Source: Candidatus Bathyarchaeia archaeon
GTDB lineage: Archaea; Thermoproteota; Bathyarchaeia; Bathyarchaeales; Bathycorpusculaceae
Assembly: GCA_049515895.1 (NCBI GenBank)
Contig: JBEKTQ010000035.1
Coordinates: 1-15,876, forward strand
Direction: 5' to 3'
DNA: 15,876 bases
Shown here: positions 71 to 8,477 of the stretch, piece after piece
How the letters are laid out: every line of letters starts with the position of its first letter
Position numbering within the stretch: the first letter of the stretch is position 1
Notes under the pieces: generated by a model
What the model saw: only the letters and a program-made list of their open reading frames with translations
What the model was told of the DNA's origin: nothing
The model's database searches: none
Program-made: the position numbers and the translations under genes

Positions 71-203
71 TGGCGGGCGGGGAGGGATTTGAACCCTCGA
101 CCCCCAACTTAGGAGGCTGGTGCTCTATCCGGGAAGATATCAAAACAAAGCGGGAACCCCCCTTTTGTAGAGAACTCTTCAATCCGTACTGAGCTACTCG
201 CCC
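71..203 (-). tRNA. tRNA-Arg(CCU), CCA encoded, with 55-nt non-canonical D-loop intron (127-181); 3' part host-derived, 5' part element-derived
   Basis: Minus strand reads GGGCGAG-TA-GCTC-AGTACGGAT[intron]A-GAGC-A-CCAGC-CT-CCT-AA-GTTGG-GGGTC-GAGGG-TTCAAAT-CCCTC-CCCGCCC-G-CCA, a 78-nt cloverleaf after splicing. Relaxed BHB: ACGG-ATT-GAAGA...TCTTC-CCGG-ATA; cutting after the second bulge nucleotides restores the D-loop AGTACGGATA. Confidence 0.93.
114..131 (+). repeat. attL core AGGCTGGTGCTCTATCCG
   Basis: Identical to 8417-8434; covers the tRNA from the D-loop-like CGGAT to U33. Confidence 0.95.
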
Positions 204-1168
204 ACAAAAACTTAGTAAACGAAATACCCATAGATAAACTTCTCAAAATCGAGAAAGTAGCAATCTATTTAGAAGGAAAAGGAAAACAACCAAACACCAT
301 AGATTCTTTCCGCAGACACATAAACGTCTTAGCCAGACGAACAAACTTAGACAACCCCAAAGAAGTAGAATTAGCAATAGCAAGATACAAACTGACAAAT
401 CCTTTCACAAAAGAAATTACAAATAAACCAGCATCAAACACCTACAAAGCCAAACTATGTTTCACATACCAACACTATGTCAAATTCTACAAATTAGATT
501 GGGAAGTACCAAAGTATGTTGAAGAAACACGAAGCATACAGCCACCATCAGACGCGCAATGCCAGATGCTAATAGCATCAGCTAGAGGCGCATTGTCACT
601 AAGAATAGACATAAGCATCCAGACAGGCTTAAGACCCATAGAAGTACAAGGATACAAGGGATTAAGAGTAAAAGACATACACTCAGACCAAAGAACAATC
701 ACAGCCTTAAGCACAAAAGGATGCAACCCAAGACCGCCAATGCAAATAAGCGAAGAACTAACAGCCAAACTAAGAACATACATCACAAAACACAACCTTC
801 AAGCCGAAGATTATCTTTTCAAAGGAGACGCAAAGAGATACGGCGAACACTACCGCCGAATGAGAAACAGATTAGCTGCAAAACTCAAAGACCCATCAAT
901 CAAAGCAATCCGACTCTATGACCTAAGACACTATTACATAACAAAACAACTTAGAAAGATACAAAATACTGAATTTGTCCGACAAATAGTGGGTCACAAA
1001 AACCTGAATACAACCCAAAAATATTTCCACCTACTTGCAAACACAAACGGAGAATGGATAGTCGAAGGCACAACAGACAAAGAACGAGCAAAACAACTAC
1101 TCGCAGCGGACTTCACATACCAGCTAACAACGCCAGATGGAACAATGCTGTTCAAGAAAGCAAAATGA
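116..1168 (+). CDS. int: Tyrosine recombinase/integrase, C-terminal fragment (intC) of a split gene
   Basis: The frame of ORF 566..1168 stays open upstream to the TAG at 110-112 with no ATG before 566 (AGALSGKISKQSGNPPFVENSSIRTELLAHK...). Catalytic motifs: TGLR, LYDLRH (YxxR variant of HxxR), VGHKNLNTTQKY. Confidence 0.92.
   Translation, partial: AGALSGKISKQSGNPPFVENSSIRTELLAHKNLVNEIPIDKLLKIEKVAIYLEGKGKQPNTIDSFRRHINVLARRTNLDNPKEVELAIARYKLTNPFTKEITNKPASNTYKAKLCFTYQHYVKFYKLDWEVPKYVEETRSIQPPSDAQCQMLIASARGALSLRIDISIQTGLRPIEVQGYKGLRVKDIHSDQRTITALSTKGCNPRPPMQISEELTAKLRTYITKHNLQAEDYLFKGDAKRYGEHYRRMRNRLAAKLKDPSIKAIRLYDLRHYYITKQLRKIQNTEFVRQIVGHKNLNTTQKYFHLLANTNGEWIVEGTTDKERAKQLLAADFTYQLTTPDGTMLFKKAK
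231..244 (-). promoter_or_regulatory. Candidate BRE/TATA promoter for the restored tRNA-Arg, embedded antisense in int
   Basis: Minus strand GAGAAG-TTTATCTA ends 28 nt upstream of tRNA G1 (203). Confidence 0.55.
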
Positions 1169-1332
1169 TGAGCTCGATTCTAATTTCCATATTCTTACTG
1201 CTTGCTCACGCGCGCGCTTGCTAATTGAGAAAGGCATTATCATGGAAGAGGAATACGAAATAGAAATCAAACAGAAAGTCAAGGTCAAATAATCAAAGAT
1301 GTTAAATCTGAAAACATACCACTAATACCATA

Positions 1333-2715
1333 ATGTCAGTACGTGACTACTTTAACACTAATACGATCTATTGTGGTGACTGCCAAGATGTTTTAAGGAA
1401 ATTTCCTGCTGAATGCGTCGATATGATATATGCTGACCCACCCTTTTTTTCAGAAGAAGGATATGAAATTCTTTGGCATGATGGATTTGAAATAAGAGCC
1501 TTTGAGGACAGATGGAAAGGCGGTATCAATAATTATGTAACATGGATGGAACCTAAACTAATGGAGTGCTACAGAGTTTTGAAGAATAACGGTTCCATGT
1601 ATCTCCATTGTGATTTCCATGCAGACGCTCACCTTAGAGTTTTAATGGATAGAATCTTTACCAGTAGAAGCTTCAAAAACGAGATTGTATGGCAGAGAAC
1701 TAATGCTCATCCAAACGCTGGTAAAAGTTACGGAAGATTACACGATGTTATCCTATTTTACACGAAATCAGATGAGTACACTTGGAACATCCAATATGTC
1801 CCTTATACTGACAGTCACGTTTCTTCTTCTTACCGATACAAAGAACCGAAAACTGGAAGACTTTACGCATCTAGAGACTTGACAGCTTCTGTTTATCACG
1901 CATCGTCTGGGCAAGTATACACGTGGAAGGGAAAGAAACCACCCGCGAGCCGTGTTTGGGCGCATTCAAAAGAGGAAATGGAAAAACTTGACAAGCAAGG
2001 CAAGATTGTATACAGCAAAAATGGTTACCCCAGATTGAAACTGTATCTAGACGAAAGCCCAGGTGTTCCTCTTCAGGATATTTGGACAGATATACGACCT
2101 GTTCAGAGTCAAGCAGATGAAAGGTTAGGTTATCCTACTCAAAAACCCGAATTATTGTTGGAGAGAATAATTAAGACTTCTTCCAATCCTATGGACATAG
2201 TGCTTGATCCCTTCTGTGGTTGTGGGACTGCGATAGTTGTGGCACATAAGTTAGGGCGTAGATGGGTTGGAATCGACATTTCTCCGACAGCATGTAATTT
2301 AATGGAAAGTAGAATGAGAAGGTTGCACATTTCCCCTAATGTTATGGGTATGCCTTTAACAGAAGAGGACTTGGCGAAACTTCCACCTTTCGAGTTTCAA
2401 AATTGGGTTGTTCAAAGATTATTTGGGAGAGTATCACCACGCAAAAGCTCAGACATGGGTATTGATGGTTACAGTTTTGAGGGGCATCCTATTCAAGTTA
2501 AACAATCGCATGATATTGGAAGAAACGTAGTTGATAATTTTGAAACTGCAATGCGAAGAAGAAAAGTAAGAAAAGGAATAATTGTAGCTTTCAGTTTTGG
2601 AAAAGGAGCCTACGAAGAAGCAGCAAGGGCAAAATTGGAAGATGGCCTTGAAATAGAAGACATAACCATCAAACAACTTATCGAAGGAAAAACAGACCAG
2701 AAAACTCTGTCTTAG
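1333..2715 (+). CDS. Beta-class N6A/N4C DNA methyltransferase fused to a C-terminal Mrr-like PD-(D/E)XK endonuclease domain
   Basis: Motif IV YADPPF precedes YPTQKP and motif I VLDPFCGCGT; C-terminal FEFQNWV...DMGIDG...IQVKQ matches the Mrr_cat pattern. Confidence 0.88.
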   Translation: MSVRDYFNTNTIYCGDCQDVLRKFPAECVDMIYADPPFFSEEGYEILWHDGFEIRAFEDRWKGGINNYVTWMEPKLMECYRVLKNNGSMYLHCDFHADAHLRVLMDRIFTSRSFKNEIVWQRTNAHPNAGKSYGRLHDVILFYTKSDEYTWNIQYVPYTDSHVSSSYRYKEPKTGRLYASRDLTASVYHASSGQVYTWKGKKPPASRVWAHSKEEMEKLDKQGKIVYSKNGYPRLKLYLDESPGVPLQDIWTDIRPVQSQADERLGYPTQKPELLLERIIKTSSNPMDIVLDPFCGCGTAIVVAHKLGRRWVGIDISPTACNLMESRMRRLHISPNVMGMPLTEEDLAKLPPFEFQNWVVQRLFGRVSPRKSSDMGIDGYSFEGHPIQVKQSHDIGRNVVDNFETAMRRRKVRKGIIVAFSFGKGAYEEAARAKLEDGLEIEDITIKQLIEGKTDQKTLS

Positions 2716-8059: not shown

Positions 8060-8358
8060 GACCGCCTTGCCCTAATTCAAGTGAAGGGCAACGCAGTCAA
8101 AAACCAACAGGGAAAACAGCAAACAAAATGCCATAGACCAAAAGGACAAAGCGCCTTCTGCATTCCGCAGCCCTCAAGTTAAATTTTTCCTCTTTTTCAG
8201 CAAGAGGCGCTGAAGCTAAAAATTTAATCTCTCGGGACAGGCGCCCGACGGAAGGGACGCATATCAATCCCAACAAGGAATGACCTTAAATGACAAACCA
8301 AAAAAATCTAAATAGTCAAACAGGCATACCGAACTATGCTCAATATGAGGTAGAGAAA

Positions 8359-8460
8359 ATGATAGAAGAAAAGAATAAAGAAGAAACACAGAAAAAAAAC
8401 AGCTTACTAAGACCTAAGGCTGGTGCTCTATCCGTACAGAGCTTCGAGAAAGAGTTTTAA
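8359..8460 (+). CDS. int: Integrase N-terminal fragment (intN)
   Basis: GAGGTAG RBS, then MIEEKNKEETQKKNSLLRPK-AGALS, reading through attR in the same frame as intC reads through attL; in the integrated state it stops at TAA 8458-8460. Confidence 0.85.
   Translation: MIEEKNKEETQKKNSLLRPKAGALSVQSFEKEF
8417..8434 (+). repeat. attR core AGGCTGGTGCTCTATCCG
   Basis: Identical to 114-131. Confidence 0.95.
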
Positions 8461-8477
8461 GCTCTCTTTACTCGCCC
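8417..8477 (-). pseudogene. Displaced host 5' half of tRNA-Arg(CCU) with a 26-nt BHB intron at position 9/10 (8443-8468)
   Basis: Minus strand GGG-CGAG-TAA-AGAGAG-CTTAAAA-CTCTTT-CTCG-AAG-CTC forms a full bulge-helix-bulge; splicing yields GGGCGAGTA-GCTC-TGTACGGATA-GAGCACCAGCCT. Confidence 0.87.

Follow-up and report, generated by a model that had tools for sequence, protein, structure and literature searches.

An element inserted in the 5' half of a tRNA gene

A tRNA gene that carries one intron in the host allele and another next to an inserted element raises the question of whether integration can exchange the two by replacing half of the gene. The window analysed here (the whole stretch of DNA, 15,876 nt) is an entire 15.9-kb contig of a Bathyarchaeia genome, and it contains an integrated element of 8,303 bp (132-8434) inside a minus-strand tRNA-Arg(CCU). 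Both borders are formed by exact copies of an 18-nt core repeat, AGGCTGGTGCTCTATCCG, at 114-131 (attL) and 8417-8434 (attR) (2 matches against 0.00 expected, 200 shuffles). On the tRNA (minus) strand the core spans the D loop to the anticodon stem, where the first-pass annotation had placed it; we confirm that observation as a whole, with all the described pieces present and small corrections given below. The host 3' part of the tRNA, from the anticodon loop to the encoded CCA, lies at 71-113 (minus strand) and is recognised by its sequence, a partial Rfam match and its identity within the genus, the 61-nt stretch 71-131 being 100% identical across many genomes.

Five relatives (L081, L073, L080, L059 and L047) possess the empty site: the counterparts of window positions 1-131 and 8417 onward are contiguous there and overlap on the 18-nt core. 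Positions 1-131 are 97.7% identical to the L081 locus, and matches to the host genes of the window follow the empty site in all of the five except L059. A tRNA-Arg gene with an intron between nucleotides 9 and 10 had been predicted for element-free relatives, and this allele was found in 5 of 5.

The corresponding native 5' part is displaced in the window to 8435-8477 (minus strand), with nt 1-9 at 8469-8477, a 26-nt intron at 8443-8468 and nt 10-17 at 8435-8442; positions 8417-8558 are 96.5% identical to the intact gene of L073. The intron follows the strict hBHBh' rule, with a 4/4 central helix (CGAG/CUCG), bulges UAA and AAG, an outer helix GGG/CUC and an inner helix AGAGAG/CUCUUU, which bears out the earlier description of a host 5' half at 8417-8477 with a full bulge-helix-bulge (BHB) intron at 9/10. 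The same rule holds in 19/19 copies of the 9/10 intron, 18 of them with a 4/4 central helix. Next to the displaced half is the host-type upstream (promoter) region of the native gene (8478-8560, minus strand), which aligns in the empty-site relatives and is conserved at all 13 intact 9/10-intron genes. The displaced copy has U14 (window position 8438); some metagenome contigs have a plus-strand T, equivalent to A14, at this position.

A split integrase that encodes the tRNA cassette in antisense

The C-terminal 351 codons of a predicted tyrosine recombinase, Int(C), are found at 113-1168 (plus strand; PF00589, E=1.3e-12), and its N-terminal 48 codons, Int(N), at 8290-8434 (plus strand), ending in the core. 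When 8290-8434 and 132-1168 are joined, they form 1182 nt, or 393 codons, with a single terminal stop. In the integrated state the frame of Int(N) continues to a stop at 8458-8460, and that of Int(C) from 113 to 565 contains no ATG, GTG or TTG before 566. The right-end peptide of Int(N), '..LLSPKAGAL', is conserved beside displaced tRNA halves at 11 other loci (12 with the window). The enzyme is an SSV-type ('suicidal') split tyrosine recombinase, which integration disables. The nearest solved structures to its sequence are XerA/XerC-like recombinases; no chain annotated by molecule name as a viral integrase was returned at E<=0.01.

One integrase frame, complete only when the two parts are joined, thus crosses the core, the 55-nt insert and the tRNA exon, which identifies insert and exon as element DNA. 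The exon occupies 182-203 (minus strand, tRNA nt 1-20a), and its plus strand encodes 'IRTELLAH'. Its 22 nt differ from the displaced copy at a single base, A14 in the element against U14, so that the near-identical 5' exon reported in the first-pass annotation stands. Both exon and intron are read antisense as integrase codons. Int(C) has 668 homologues at E<=1e-20. A survey of homologous integrases for intron-bearing 5' halves had been proposed, and its outcome is positive: of the best 120 homologues, 75 contain the antisense translation of the tRNA exon, and 50 different D-loop introns occupy this site in the genus.

The element carries predicted cargo, namely a fusion of an N6/N4 DNA methyltransferase with an Mrr-like nuclease domain (1333-2715, plus strand; PF01555, E=2.7e-50; PF04471, E=1.3e-06; PADLOC MTase_II, E=1.5e-68) and a DUF4365 protein with a restriction-endonuclease-like N-terminus (3484-4344, plus strand; PF14280, E=4.9e-15; PADLOC Aga_REase-PNTD, E=3.8e-12). 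A putative degenerate integrase-like ORF (7064-8059, plus strand) matches PF00589 below the cut-off (E=0.0033); across 135 aa it shares 24% identity with Int(C), 'LVK' standing opposite the integrase 'LRH'.

A relaxed intron conserved as RNA

The 55-nt intron is located at 127-181 (minus strand), between nt 20a and 21 in the numbering of this analysis, as judged from fold, register and covariation. This span is set by the GGAU|AGAGC junction; as CGGAT is found at both ends, 132-186 is equivalent. The claim of a second BHB intron at the end of the D loop holds in that the element supplies an intron different from the one at 9/10, but the motif is relaxed and falls short of a full BHB. Its 5' bulge is a clean one of 3 nt (AUU), the central helix has 3/4 pairs (CGG/CCG), and in the long inner hairpin intron nt 2 pairs with nt n-6 and five consecutive pairs form. 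The 3' splice site, outside any 3-nt bulge, falls in a 4x4 internal loop (AGUA/GAUA) that adjoins the D stem and lies opposite A14-G15-U16 of the D loop.

Among 120 genomes of the genus we found 50 different D-loop introns at exactly the same site. In 40 of these 50 the inner helix starts exactly with nt 2 against n-6 and has at least 4 consecutive pairs, compared with 4.9% for mismatched partners and at most 2/50 for each of six shifted registers; the central helix has 4/4 pairs in one intron, 3/4 in 33 and 2/4 in 16. All 8 inner-helix pairs of the 30-nt intron family change on both sides, with a covariation score of 0.432 against 0.149 for shuffled alignments (0/500 as high) and 0.05-0.16 for slid ones. 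For the 55-nt family the share of paired cells is 90.3%, falling to no more than 52% on sliding, and four pairs change on both sides. The exon has a mean pairwise identity of 97.8% among 35 element-type alleles, compared with 32-37% in the flanking 22-nt windows and 33% at the intron start. It is translated in two frames among the 120 best integrase homologues (IRTELLAH-like in 58, SVLSYSP-like in 17), and the peptide is therefore not what is conserved. These patterns argue that the cassette of exon and intron is under RNA-level selection. Contigs of other organisms in metagenome runs X1 and X2 skip exactly 127-181.

Recurrence and decay in the genus

Upstream regions were classified for 100 complete genes from 93 genomes. 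For the D-loop alleles (n=51) the upstream sequence derives from the integrase in at least 27 and is of host type in 8, with 16 left unclassified. Six loci (the window, L044, L065, L082, L019 and L033) have displaced halves of the 9/10 type, mutated in L065, L082 and L019, and two have halves of the D-loop type. Some elements have shrunk to 0.8-1.8 kb, L062 and L029 show serial replacement, and there are genes with the host promoter that have either a D-loop intron or no intron at all. The empty sites, the integrase frame and this survey agree in supporting the swap of a tRNA 5' half by a mobile element, from a 9/10 to a D-loop intron, as the first-pass annotation had proposed. We consider it very probable that integration replaced the host 5' half, with loss of the 9/10 intron and gain of the D-loop intron, and that the chimeric gene is most likely functional.

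Mechanistically, the split-integrase element recombined with the chromosomal tRNA-Arg(CCU) at the 18-bp core of the D arm and anticodon stem. This core lies in the tRNA 5' half, and the integrase gene crosses it in the antiparallel direction; integration therefore moved the native promoter and the 5' part with its strict 9/10 intron 8.3 kb away. The host 3' part was joined to the antisense cassette of the element, the 22-nt exon (nt 1-20a) followed by the 55-nt relaxed-BHB intron. Such an exchange may be reversible; no excision product was found among the metagenome contigs, which cannot show absence.

Product of the chimeric gene

ARAGORN with default settings finds no tRNA in the window, and Rfam gives a partial, sub-threshold match at 82-139 (24.9 bits, cut-off 29). 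When the 55 nt are removed in silico, ARAGORN returns a canonical tRNA-Arg(cct) of 78 nt, as anticipated for the reconstructed allele; this product differs from the reconstructed native one at nt 14 only. The 100%-complete assembly contains no second CCU gene, so the chimeric gene is its only tRNA-Arg(CCU), from whose transcript a two-subunit splicing endonuclease most likely removes the 55 nt to give a normal tRNA. The genome has two EndA paralogues. The best chain matches of one, which has the His, are 3p1z_B, 3ajv_B and 2zyz_B; the other, as read from the sequences, has a Thr in its place. Since the 3' site lies outside a 3-nt bulge and the central helix is mostly incomplete, cleavage would depend on a broad-specificity endonuclease. 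We infer that both precursors, native and chimeric, can be spliced. Transcription may start from an element-borne promoter, for which the only candidate is a T/A-rich box about 33-40 nt upstream; as it coincides with conserved integrase codons, this box is not separable from protein constraint.

Alternative explanations

That the window joins different strains, with tRNA halves that were never on one molecule, might be feared of a short contig from a metagenome-assembled genome, the tRNA lying 70 nt from its end and several tRNA-Arg(CCU) variants coexisting in the same metagenomes. We regard this as highly improbable. In public peat and wetland metagenomes, contigs of run X1 cover attL (102-205) and attR (176-8493) without differences (X1 and X2 possibly being the source sample), and so does, over attR (8368-8744), a contig of the independent run X3, from a different study. 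The same layout is present in dozens of other genomes, some in a single contig, and the displaced half, Int(N), cargo, Int(C) and chimeric gene are also found on long contigs (L044, L033, L062 and L067). There is equally little chance that 71-203 is the native gene and that the element brought 8417-8477 with the 9/10 intron. With repeats at both ends, one sequence alone cannot assign the borders of an insertion, but the integrase frame requires 132-203 as codons, and the sequences left of 71 and right of 8477 are contiguous in the empty-site relatives, where the gene has the 9/10 intron.

A more serious objection accepts the swap but takes the chimeric gene to be dead, with AGG read by tRNA-Arg(UCU) and the exon- and hairpin-like segments kept only as integrase codons or arms of a recombination site. 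A tRNA-Arg(UCU) gene is present in the same genome; in principle its product can decode AGG, and the cell might then do without the CCU tRNA. Furthermore, no RNA run that was searched contains the window stretch, the 3' site is non-canonical, and both ARAGORN and Rfam refuse the unspliced gene. We nevertheless find a dead gene unlikely. The exon is far more conserved than the surrounding integrase DNA and is read in two frames, the hairpin shows covariation precisely in the BHB register, and the distance from hairpin to core varies from 29 to 99 nt, a poor fit to a protein-binding arm site. Moreover, eight genomes have the D-loop-intron gene behind a host-type upstream region, and among them a second complete CCU gene was classified only in G051 (L046, intron-less).

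These eight genomes, which have no adjacent integrase, also give some weight to a reading in which part of the genus had the D-loop intron as an old host allele. Elements would have captured it when the att region embedded in their integrase recombined with such hosts, and would thus shuffle introns and not create them. A D-loop intron as the native allele of empty-site relatives had been named as contrary to the swap; the five relatives carry the 9/10 allele, but elsewhere in the genus the eight genomes go part of the way towards that observation. With a host-type promoter region in front of their D-loop introns, such introns need not stem from elements and may have passed from element to host or the other way. 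Seven of the eight share two mismatches in the tRNA 3' part and look like one subclade, and the 55-nt family is linked to at least 5 integrase N-terminal sequence types, so that the cassette recombines freely. Yet the introns of that subclade belong to different families (30, 54, 59, 60 and 66 nt), which looks like repeated replacement, at least 27 of the 51 D-loop alleles abut integrase-derived sequence, and G024 (L017), which has the host upstream region, carries an intron that shares 89% identity with that of the element in the window. We hold host origin to be possible, though less probable than the alternative; it concerns origin only and is compatible with the swap in the window.

Relation to known systems

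The idea of such a mechanism is not new. Its one-locus precedent is tRNA-Thr(GGU) of Caldiarchaeum subterraneum, where, in the passages cited, a recombinase-bearing insertion lies between direct repeats of the tRNA 5' region; the element-side copy adds a 24/25 intron absent from the empty-site allele, and the authors propose an intron-containing attP (Sugahara et al. 2012, PLoS One, PMC3293823). There, as in the window, the element-side tRNA 5' copy brings the intron. As described, that case comprises one locus in one population, with a recombinase that does not overlap the tRNA and is argued to be pNOB8-like, and the outcome is a gain only, one intron becoming two; in the window, by contrast, the 9/10 intron is lost as the D-loop intron is gained, a split integrase gene contains the cassette in antisense, and the family offers about 50 natural replicates, covariation, decayed elements and serial replacements.

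SSV-type (type I, 'suicidal') integrases, such as those of SSV1 and pT26-2, have attP within the integrase ORF (Badel et al. 2020, MBE, PMC7253208), and share with the window the int(N)/int(C) split at the borders and a translated att site. Their att is described as the tRNA 3' end (51 bp in pT26-2), whereas the identical core of the window family is only 13-18 bp, in the 5' half, and its integrase ORF also holds a separate exon and intron. That paper records one Archaeoglobales element at a tRNA 5' end, and the word 'intron' does not occur in it. Integration in the 5'-distal part of tRNA genes is reported as considerably rarer than in the 3' part, with one case, CalSub-E1, in the data set (Krupovic et al. 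2019, PMC6563490). Like the window element, CalSub-E1 recombines with the 5' part, which an element of this kind must supply; the intron exchange described here is absent from the discussion of 5' integration in the part of that paper cited.

Two earlier lines of work have linked mobile DNA to the turnover of non-canonical archaeal tRNA introns, as the window does. One is the hypothesis that introns protect tRNA genes from integration (Randau and Soll 2008, as cited in PMC4090602); the other concerns the transposition of introns in Thermoproteales (Fujishima et al. 2010, as cited in bioRxiv 10.64898/2026.10.13.758758). Against protection, as summarised there, stand the six 9/10-type and two D-loop-type halves displaced despite their introns; the core sits between both intron positions, so neither intron blocked integration. 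At the level of the genus, the element family repeatedly replaces the 5' half of tRNA-Arg(CCU), and the swapped intron state persists once the element decays or recombines away. In contrast to transposition as cited, the intron travels with the replaced gene segment, and not by being copied into new tRNA genes.

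Organization of the split tRNA-Arg(CCU) locus

The window makes up the entire contig C35 of an archaeal assembly of 3.18 Mb in 53 contigs, and its sequence occurs in public peat and wetland metagenome runs, with no RNA run listed among them. On the minus strand, its sequence contains the 3' part of tRNA-Arg(CCU), through the encoded CCA, at 71-131. The 18-nt string of 114-131 is repeated exactly at 8417-8434, an occurrence for which the chance expectation is none (direct pattern search), and this core is absent from the 20 largest repeat families of the window (repeat-family scan). 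Right of the second core copy, at 8435-8477 (minus strand), lies a displaced half made up of the remainder of the D arm, a 26-nt insert (8443-8468, minus strand) and tRNA nt 1-9. A second copy of tRNA nt 1-20a, a 22-nt exon, is found at 182-203 (minus strand) and is separated from the first core copy by another insert, at 127-181, whose length of 55 nt is set by the junction GGAU/AGAGC.

A default ARAGORN run called no tRNA in the window, and Rfam gave at the tRNA locus only a partial match (82-139), below threshold. Once the 55 nt are removed in silico, ARAGORN, which made no call before the removal, calls a 78-nt tRNA-Arg(cct). The displaced half, minus its 26-nt insert and joined in silico to the 3' part, yields the same tRNA with a sole difference at nt 14, which is A in the element copy and U in the displaced copy. 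We rejected the call of 71-203 as 'tRNA-Arg(acg) i(38,37)', obtained by running ARAGORN -i on the genome, as a wrong intron model.

The element (8,303 bp; G+C 39.7% vs 42.9% in the host flank) carries genes for a DNA methyltransferase with a fused Mrr-like domain and for a DUF4365 nuclease-like protein, together with several ORFs that matched no family. PHROGs gave no match for seven cargo ORFs; the ORF at 2772-2975 matched one PHROGs family, of unknown function. A second, degenerate integrase-like ORF (7064-8059, plus strand), immediately upstream of Int(N), the N-terminal part of the integrase, has a weak PF00589 match under the cut-off and 'LVK' in place of the integrase's 'LRH'; its product resembles either a relic that has lost activity or an accessory protein.

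The host part of the window contains a second tRNA gene (12678-12789, plus strand; Rfam 35.3 bits), whose anticodon-loop region contains a 29-nt insert and whose variable arm is long; the default ARAGORN run missed this gene. At 13939-15876 (minus strand) a catalase-peroxidase (katG-like) gene is present as two overlapping ORFs of 173 aa and 478 aa, with the overlap near 14432-14460. The G+C content of this stretch is 56-60%, vs ~43% elsewhere; the gene may have been horizontally acquired and carry a frameshift, or its state may reflect an assembly error.

Empty sites in related genomes

In five genomes of the genus (loci L081, L073, L080, L059 and L047), positions 1-131 of the window (or 68/70-131) abut 8417 onward, and the overlap of the two window segments is exactly the 18-nt core. 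Identity to these empty sites is as high as 97.7% for the left segment (L081) and 96.5% for the right one (L073). In four of the loci, L059 being the exception, host genes of the window are matched on the right, namely the Fe-ADH/G1P-dehydrogenase-like gene, FKBP and the second tRNA. All five genes have an insert of 26-30 nt between nt 9 and 10, just as the first-pass annotation had predicted for relatives without the element. The reversed assignment, with the 9/10 fragment as element DNA, is ruled out by these five loci with a 9/10 gene. The arrangement is that of the model of Sugahara et al.: a recombinase-bearing insertion has a 5' tRNA fragment on one side and, on the other, a complete gene whose intron is missing from the empty-site allele.

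A split integrase that encodes a tRNA 5' half

The recombinase frame is open over 113-1168, with no ATG, GTG or TTG before 566; its PF00589 score (48.3 bits, cut-off 27.1) indicates that a tyrosine-recombinase catalytic domain is present. A short ORF beginning at ATG 8290 extends into the second copy of the core and reads it in the recombinase frame, and 8290-8434 joined in silico to 132-1168 gives 1182 nt, or 393 codons with a single terminal stop. Together with the empty sites, this joined integrase bears out the earlier proposal that the element swaps the 5' half of a host tRNA for its own. The attP thus lies inside the ORF and the two parts of the gene, Int(N) and Int(C), lie at the element borders, with Int(N) ends conserved in other loci. 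This is the layout of SSV-type ('suicidal') integrases, described by Badel et al. (2020, PMC7253208) as genes that contain attP and are broken into int(N) and int(C) on integration. As the class is one of gene organization, we apply the name in that sense only. No kinship with the SSV1 integrase was found by sequence, a PDB search at E<=0.01 giving only 4a8e (XerC-like) and 5hxy (XerA). The PDB includes SSV1 integrase structures.

On the plus strand, integrase codons (K-A-G-A-L-S ... I-R-T-E-L-L-A-H) make up the core as well as the 55-nt insert and the 22-nt exon, all of which are therefore element DNA. A scan of viral contigs returned neither a relative of Int(C) nor a free form of the element, and the 120 best-matching protein homologues (of 668) included no clear unsplit copy of the window's integrase subfamily. 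Metagenome contigs, which are unable to prove absence, gave no empty-site joint from 131 to 8435 and no circle junction; some contig joints do skip 127-181, but they are supported by just 23-24 nt on each side and belong to other organisms, whose genes are intron-less. With its gene split by integration, the element would require integrase from another copy for reversal, as is established for this class (PMC7253208).

It might be argued that the chimeric CCU gene is dead, a state that might be tolerated since a tRNA-Arg(UCU) is present in the genome. We regard this as improbable, given the conservation of the exon. In the 35 genes with integrase-derived upstream regions, mean identity is 97.8% over tRNA nt 1-22 and 100% over the 13-nt core, vs 32-37% in three upstream windows of 22 nt and 33% in the first 22 nt of the intron (ungapped). 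The exon is moreover translated in homologous integrases, whose survey for intron-bearing tRNA 5' halves the first-pass annotation had proposed: among the 120 best of 668, its peptide is IRTELLAH-like in 58 and SVLSYSP-like in 17, which is one DNA in two reading frames, and the remaining 45 are mostly shorter gene calls with downstream starts. Identity far above that of the flanks and the reading in two frames both mean that the conserved object is the nucleotide sequence, and we regard this nucleotide-level conservation as the best argument for use of the chimeric gene. Variant peptides (IRAELPAQ, IRPELPAQ, IRTELPVH and others) also occur among homologous integrases, as does another N-terminal motif (LAGEWA/LAGKWA), which hints that relatives may target other tRNA sequences through the same double-coding layout.

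Most element-type genes have a T/A-rich box ~33-40 nt upstream (the window has TTTATCTA; other loci have, for example, TTTGTATA or ATTTATGT), which we infer to be a putative element-borne promoter; since it coincides with conserved integrase codons (I-x-T-L-L), promoter and protein constraint are inseparable here.

Structure of the two introns

In the hBHBh' motif, two 3-nt bulges on opposite strands flank a 4-bp helix, both cuts fall after the second base of the bulge, and an outer helix (exon with exon) and an inner helix (intron with intron) adjoin the bulges. The 9/10 insert was available in 19 copies among the matches listed in the genus survey (13 intact genes and 6 displaced halves). 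Its central helix, CGAG/CUCG, has 4/4 pairs in 18 of these 19, the window included, and 3/4 in the mutated displaced copy of L082. The bulges are UAA and AAG in the window, and UAA and A-N-G across copies; the outer helix GGG/CUC has 3/3 pairs in 18/19, and the inner helix varies in sequence among species with its pairing kept. We take the 9/10 insert as a predicted strict hBHBh' motif.

The 55-nt insert, at the D-loop position, had been annotated as a BHB intron as well. The D-loop inserts (50 distinct ones among the matches listed, locus L129 having been left out of the structural tests as a regex artefact and not a D-loop intron) have a common fold plan in all 50 cases: the D stem, a 4x4 loop (AGUA vs N-A-N-A), a helix of CGG with CCG, ACG, CUG or UCG and, inward, a 3-nt bulge A-U-N followed by a long imperfect hairpin. 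This A-U-N bulge is found at the 5' splice site in 50/50 introns. When the register was tested according to the BHB rule, with intron base 2 paired with the seventh-from-last base (nt n-6), at least four consecutive pairs were present in 40/50 introns, vs 4.9% when a 5' side was matched with the 3' side of another intron and at most 2/50 in each of six shifted registers. In the 30-nt family (n=13), 8/8 inner-helix pairs have changes on both sides and 91.3% of cells are paired, with a covariation score of 0.432 vs 0.149 for shuffled data (0/500 as high) and 0.05-0.16 when slid. In the 55-nt family (n=9, with the window's intron), 90.3% of cells are paired vs at most 52% when slid, and 4 pairs change on both sides.

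The register and the covariation thus uphold the intron-like character of the 55-nt insert, but not a full BHB. The 3' splice site has no 3-nt bulge; A-N-A, followed by the D stem, stands opposite A14-G15-U16, and the 3' cut site falls in a 3x3 to 4x4 internal loop. The window's central helix forms three of its four pairs (CGG/CCG), the fourth position being an A.G mismatch; among the 50 introns this helix has 4 pairs in 1, 3 in 33 and 2 in 16. The register, the covariation, a central helix of 2-4 pairs out of 4 and a 3' site in an internal loop therefore indicate a structured, RNA-selected intron of a relaxed kind, the only class that fits its 3' site being the relaxed one (HBh').

Two EndA-family (PF01974) genes, of 184 and 183 aa, are present in the genome, on contigs C31 and C3. 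The first best matches chains 3p1z_B, 3ajv_B and 2zyz_B, from crenarchaeal heterotetramers, and the second best matches 1a79; read by eye from the sequences, the second has Thr at the position of the catalytic His of the first. The pair would fit a two-subunit, alpha2beta2-like enzyme of broad specificity.

Intron states across the genus

A search of 120 genomes from the genus recovered the 61-nt 3' part (71-131) in 107 of them. Stretches of at most 20 kb, 120 in number, were taken around the best-scoring matches (150 of 197 matches listed), most matches of ~90% identity being excluded as taken for other tRNAs. Among the matches listed, a regex search identified at least 100 complete genes in at least 93 genomes. 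The 9/10 intron is present in 13 of these genes, 36 are intron-less and 51 were classed as having a D-loop intron, a class that includes the artefact L129 and misses the true case L044. The latter locus (genome G076), outside the table of 100 genes, has a D-loop allele, a full integrase and a displaced 9/10 half. L114 is without class, the classes leave out 19 copies of the 3' part that are partial, and seven loci (L092, L112, L119, L130, L131, L133 and L134) have no 3'-part match at 5 or fewer mismatches.

Upstream regions were classed by tblastn against homologue N-termini, the peptide motif 'LEGKG' having proved too strict a classifier. They are host-type in 13/13 of the 9/10 genes; among the 51 D-loop genes, 27 are integrase-derived, 8 host-type and 16 unclassified, and among the 36 intron-less genes, 8, 4 and 24, respectively. 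Several unclassified regions (L020, L021, L026, L085 and L029) appear, by eye, to be integrase-derived. Another upstream type, ending in ..CACCATTTTAAAGAATAGTT, is shared by 15 intron-less genes (L070, L075, L074, L089, L041, L093, L049, L058, L066, L051, L054, L060, L053, L064 and L057). In L075, a 54%-identical integrase begins another ~400 nt upstream, and 8.8 kb separate the gene from a displaced half that is intron-less. The 15 genes probably owe their intron-less 5' half to a sister family.

The survey yielded several further observations. Nearly all tRNA-Arg(CCU) genes of the genus, the window's and those of most loci from L017 to L136 among them, have an A6.C67 mismatch in the acceptor stem, a few having G6 (GGGCGGG); the host 3' part of locus L137 carries U67, but its element-supplied exon carries A3. 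In seven assemblies, two complete copies of tRNA-Arg(CCU) lie on separate contigs, in some cases with different intron states (G095, with L072 and L073; G103, L053 and L054; G110, L083 and L097; G100, L020 and L021; G078, L064 and L093; G051, L046 and L104; G062, L120 and L121); these could be strain mixtures in bins, or elements with a whole gene. Partial copies of the 3' part, with unrelated upstream regions, lie 0.5-8 kb from the complete gene in L036, L064, L078, L096, L101, L108, L135 and others, which suggests that other element families may use the classical 3'-end att site and that tRNA-Arg(CCU) may be a multi-family hotspot.

Displaced halves and a model of intron exchange

At 12 loci including the window, a displaced 5' half is followed by the core and then by the conserved Int(N) end; L075, a thirteenth locus with a displaced half, has a different continuation after the core. 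The displaced halves are of the 9/10 type in six cases (the window, L044, L065, L082, L019 and L033) and intron-less in four (L050, L067, L075 and L030). Two (L062 and L029) have a D-loop intron of their own, that is, serial replacement of an already replaced half. The distance from displaced half to current gene ranges from 0.8 to 8.8 kb. Where it is short, tblastn found no complete integrase: L065 has no Int(C) match, and L019 and L082 have N-terminal fragments only. In these same three loci the displaced halves are mutated in the acceptor, nt 8, the D stem or the core. Fixation through element decay is seen directly. The displaced half of the window has U14 as its sole sign of decay (A14 in 18/19 of the 9/10-type copies), and metagenome contigs with A at nt 14 of the displaced half exist.

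Integration at the core, between the 9/10 and D-loop positions, exchanges the whole of the gene 5' of it, so that the intron state of the element itself is installed and the native state set aside. Neither intron is a barrier to this integrase family. The D-loop genes with a host promoter would stem from later recombination between the repeated exon segments, an inference with which these genes are compatible; the clearest case is genome G024 (locus L017), whose intron is 89% identical to that of the window. Elements may also act in the opposite direction, by capturing a host intron.

We give about even credence to a more general reading, namely that a whole family of Bathyarchaeia split integrases, with a portable antisense 'tRNA front-end cassette' (promoter-like box, 22-nt exon and BHB-type intron) inside the reading frame, is the main driver of tRNA-Arg(CCU) intron turnover in the genus. 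The D-loop introns would spread by way of the integrase gene, in which they may even have arisen and in which they would also serve as a variable linker of the protein; the D-loop and intron-less genes with a host promoter would derive from these cassettes through recombination or decay of the element.

Relation to known systems

Integration into the 5' part of a tRNA gene is known but uncommon (PMC6563490, PMC7253208). The nearest precedent, described by Sugahara et al. (2012, PMC3293823), is in Caldiarchaeum, where a putative recombinase is encoded by a 1.8-kb insertion that has a 5' fragment of tRNA-Thr(GGU) on one side and, on the other, a complete gene with an extra intron at 24/25; those authors concluded that the source was an intron-containing attP. 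Unlike that element, ours exchanges one intron for another, and its cassette is antisense within a split integrase ORF, in two frames across the family. In contrast to the single locus of Caldiarchaeum, we have a genus with ~50 introns and covariation evidence (at least 27 D-loop genes being integrase-derived upstream), in which intact, decayed and serial events all occur. Our literature search, thin on subscription journals and confined to main texts, found no published tRNA exon plus intron inside an integrase ORF, and no published account of such an intron exchange in Bathyarchaeia.

The origin, movement and loss of non-canonical archaeal tRNA introns is a long-standing question, for which the prior mobile-element proposal came from a single locus. 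The tRNA-Arg(CCU) gene offers a well-replicated natural experiment: one tRNA gene, at least 93 genomes, three intron states, identifiable donors, displaced halves decayed to various degrees and serial replacements. It also illustrates an uncommon dual use of DNA, with integrase codons in either of two frames on one strand and a tRNA exon plus a structured intron on the other. As the family integrates between two intron positions, it runs counter to the proposal that introns protect tRNA genes against integration. If the cassette reading is true, this would be the first system that allows archaeal tRNA introns to be traced, one event at a time, as they are gained, lost and relocated.
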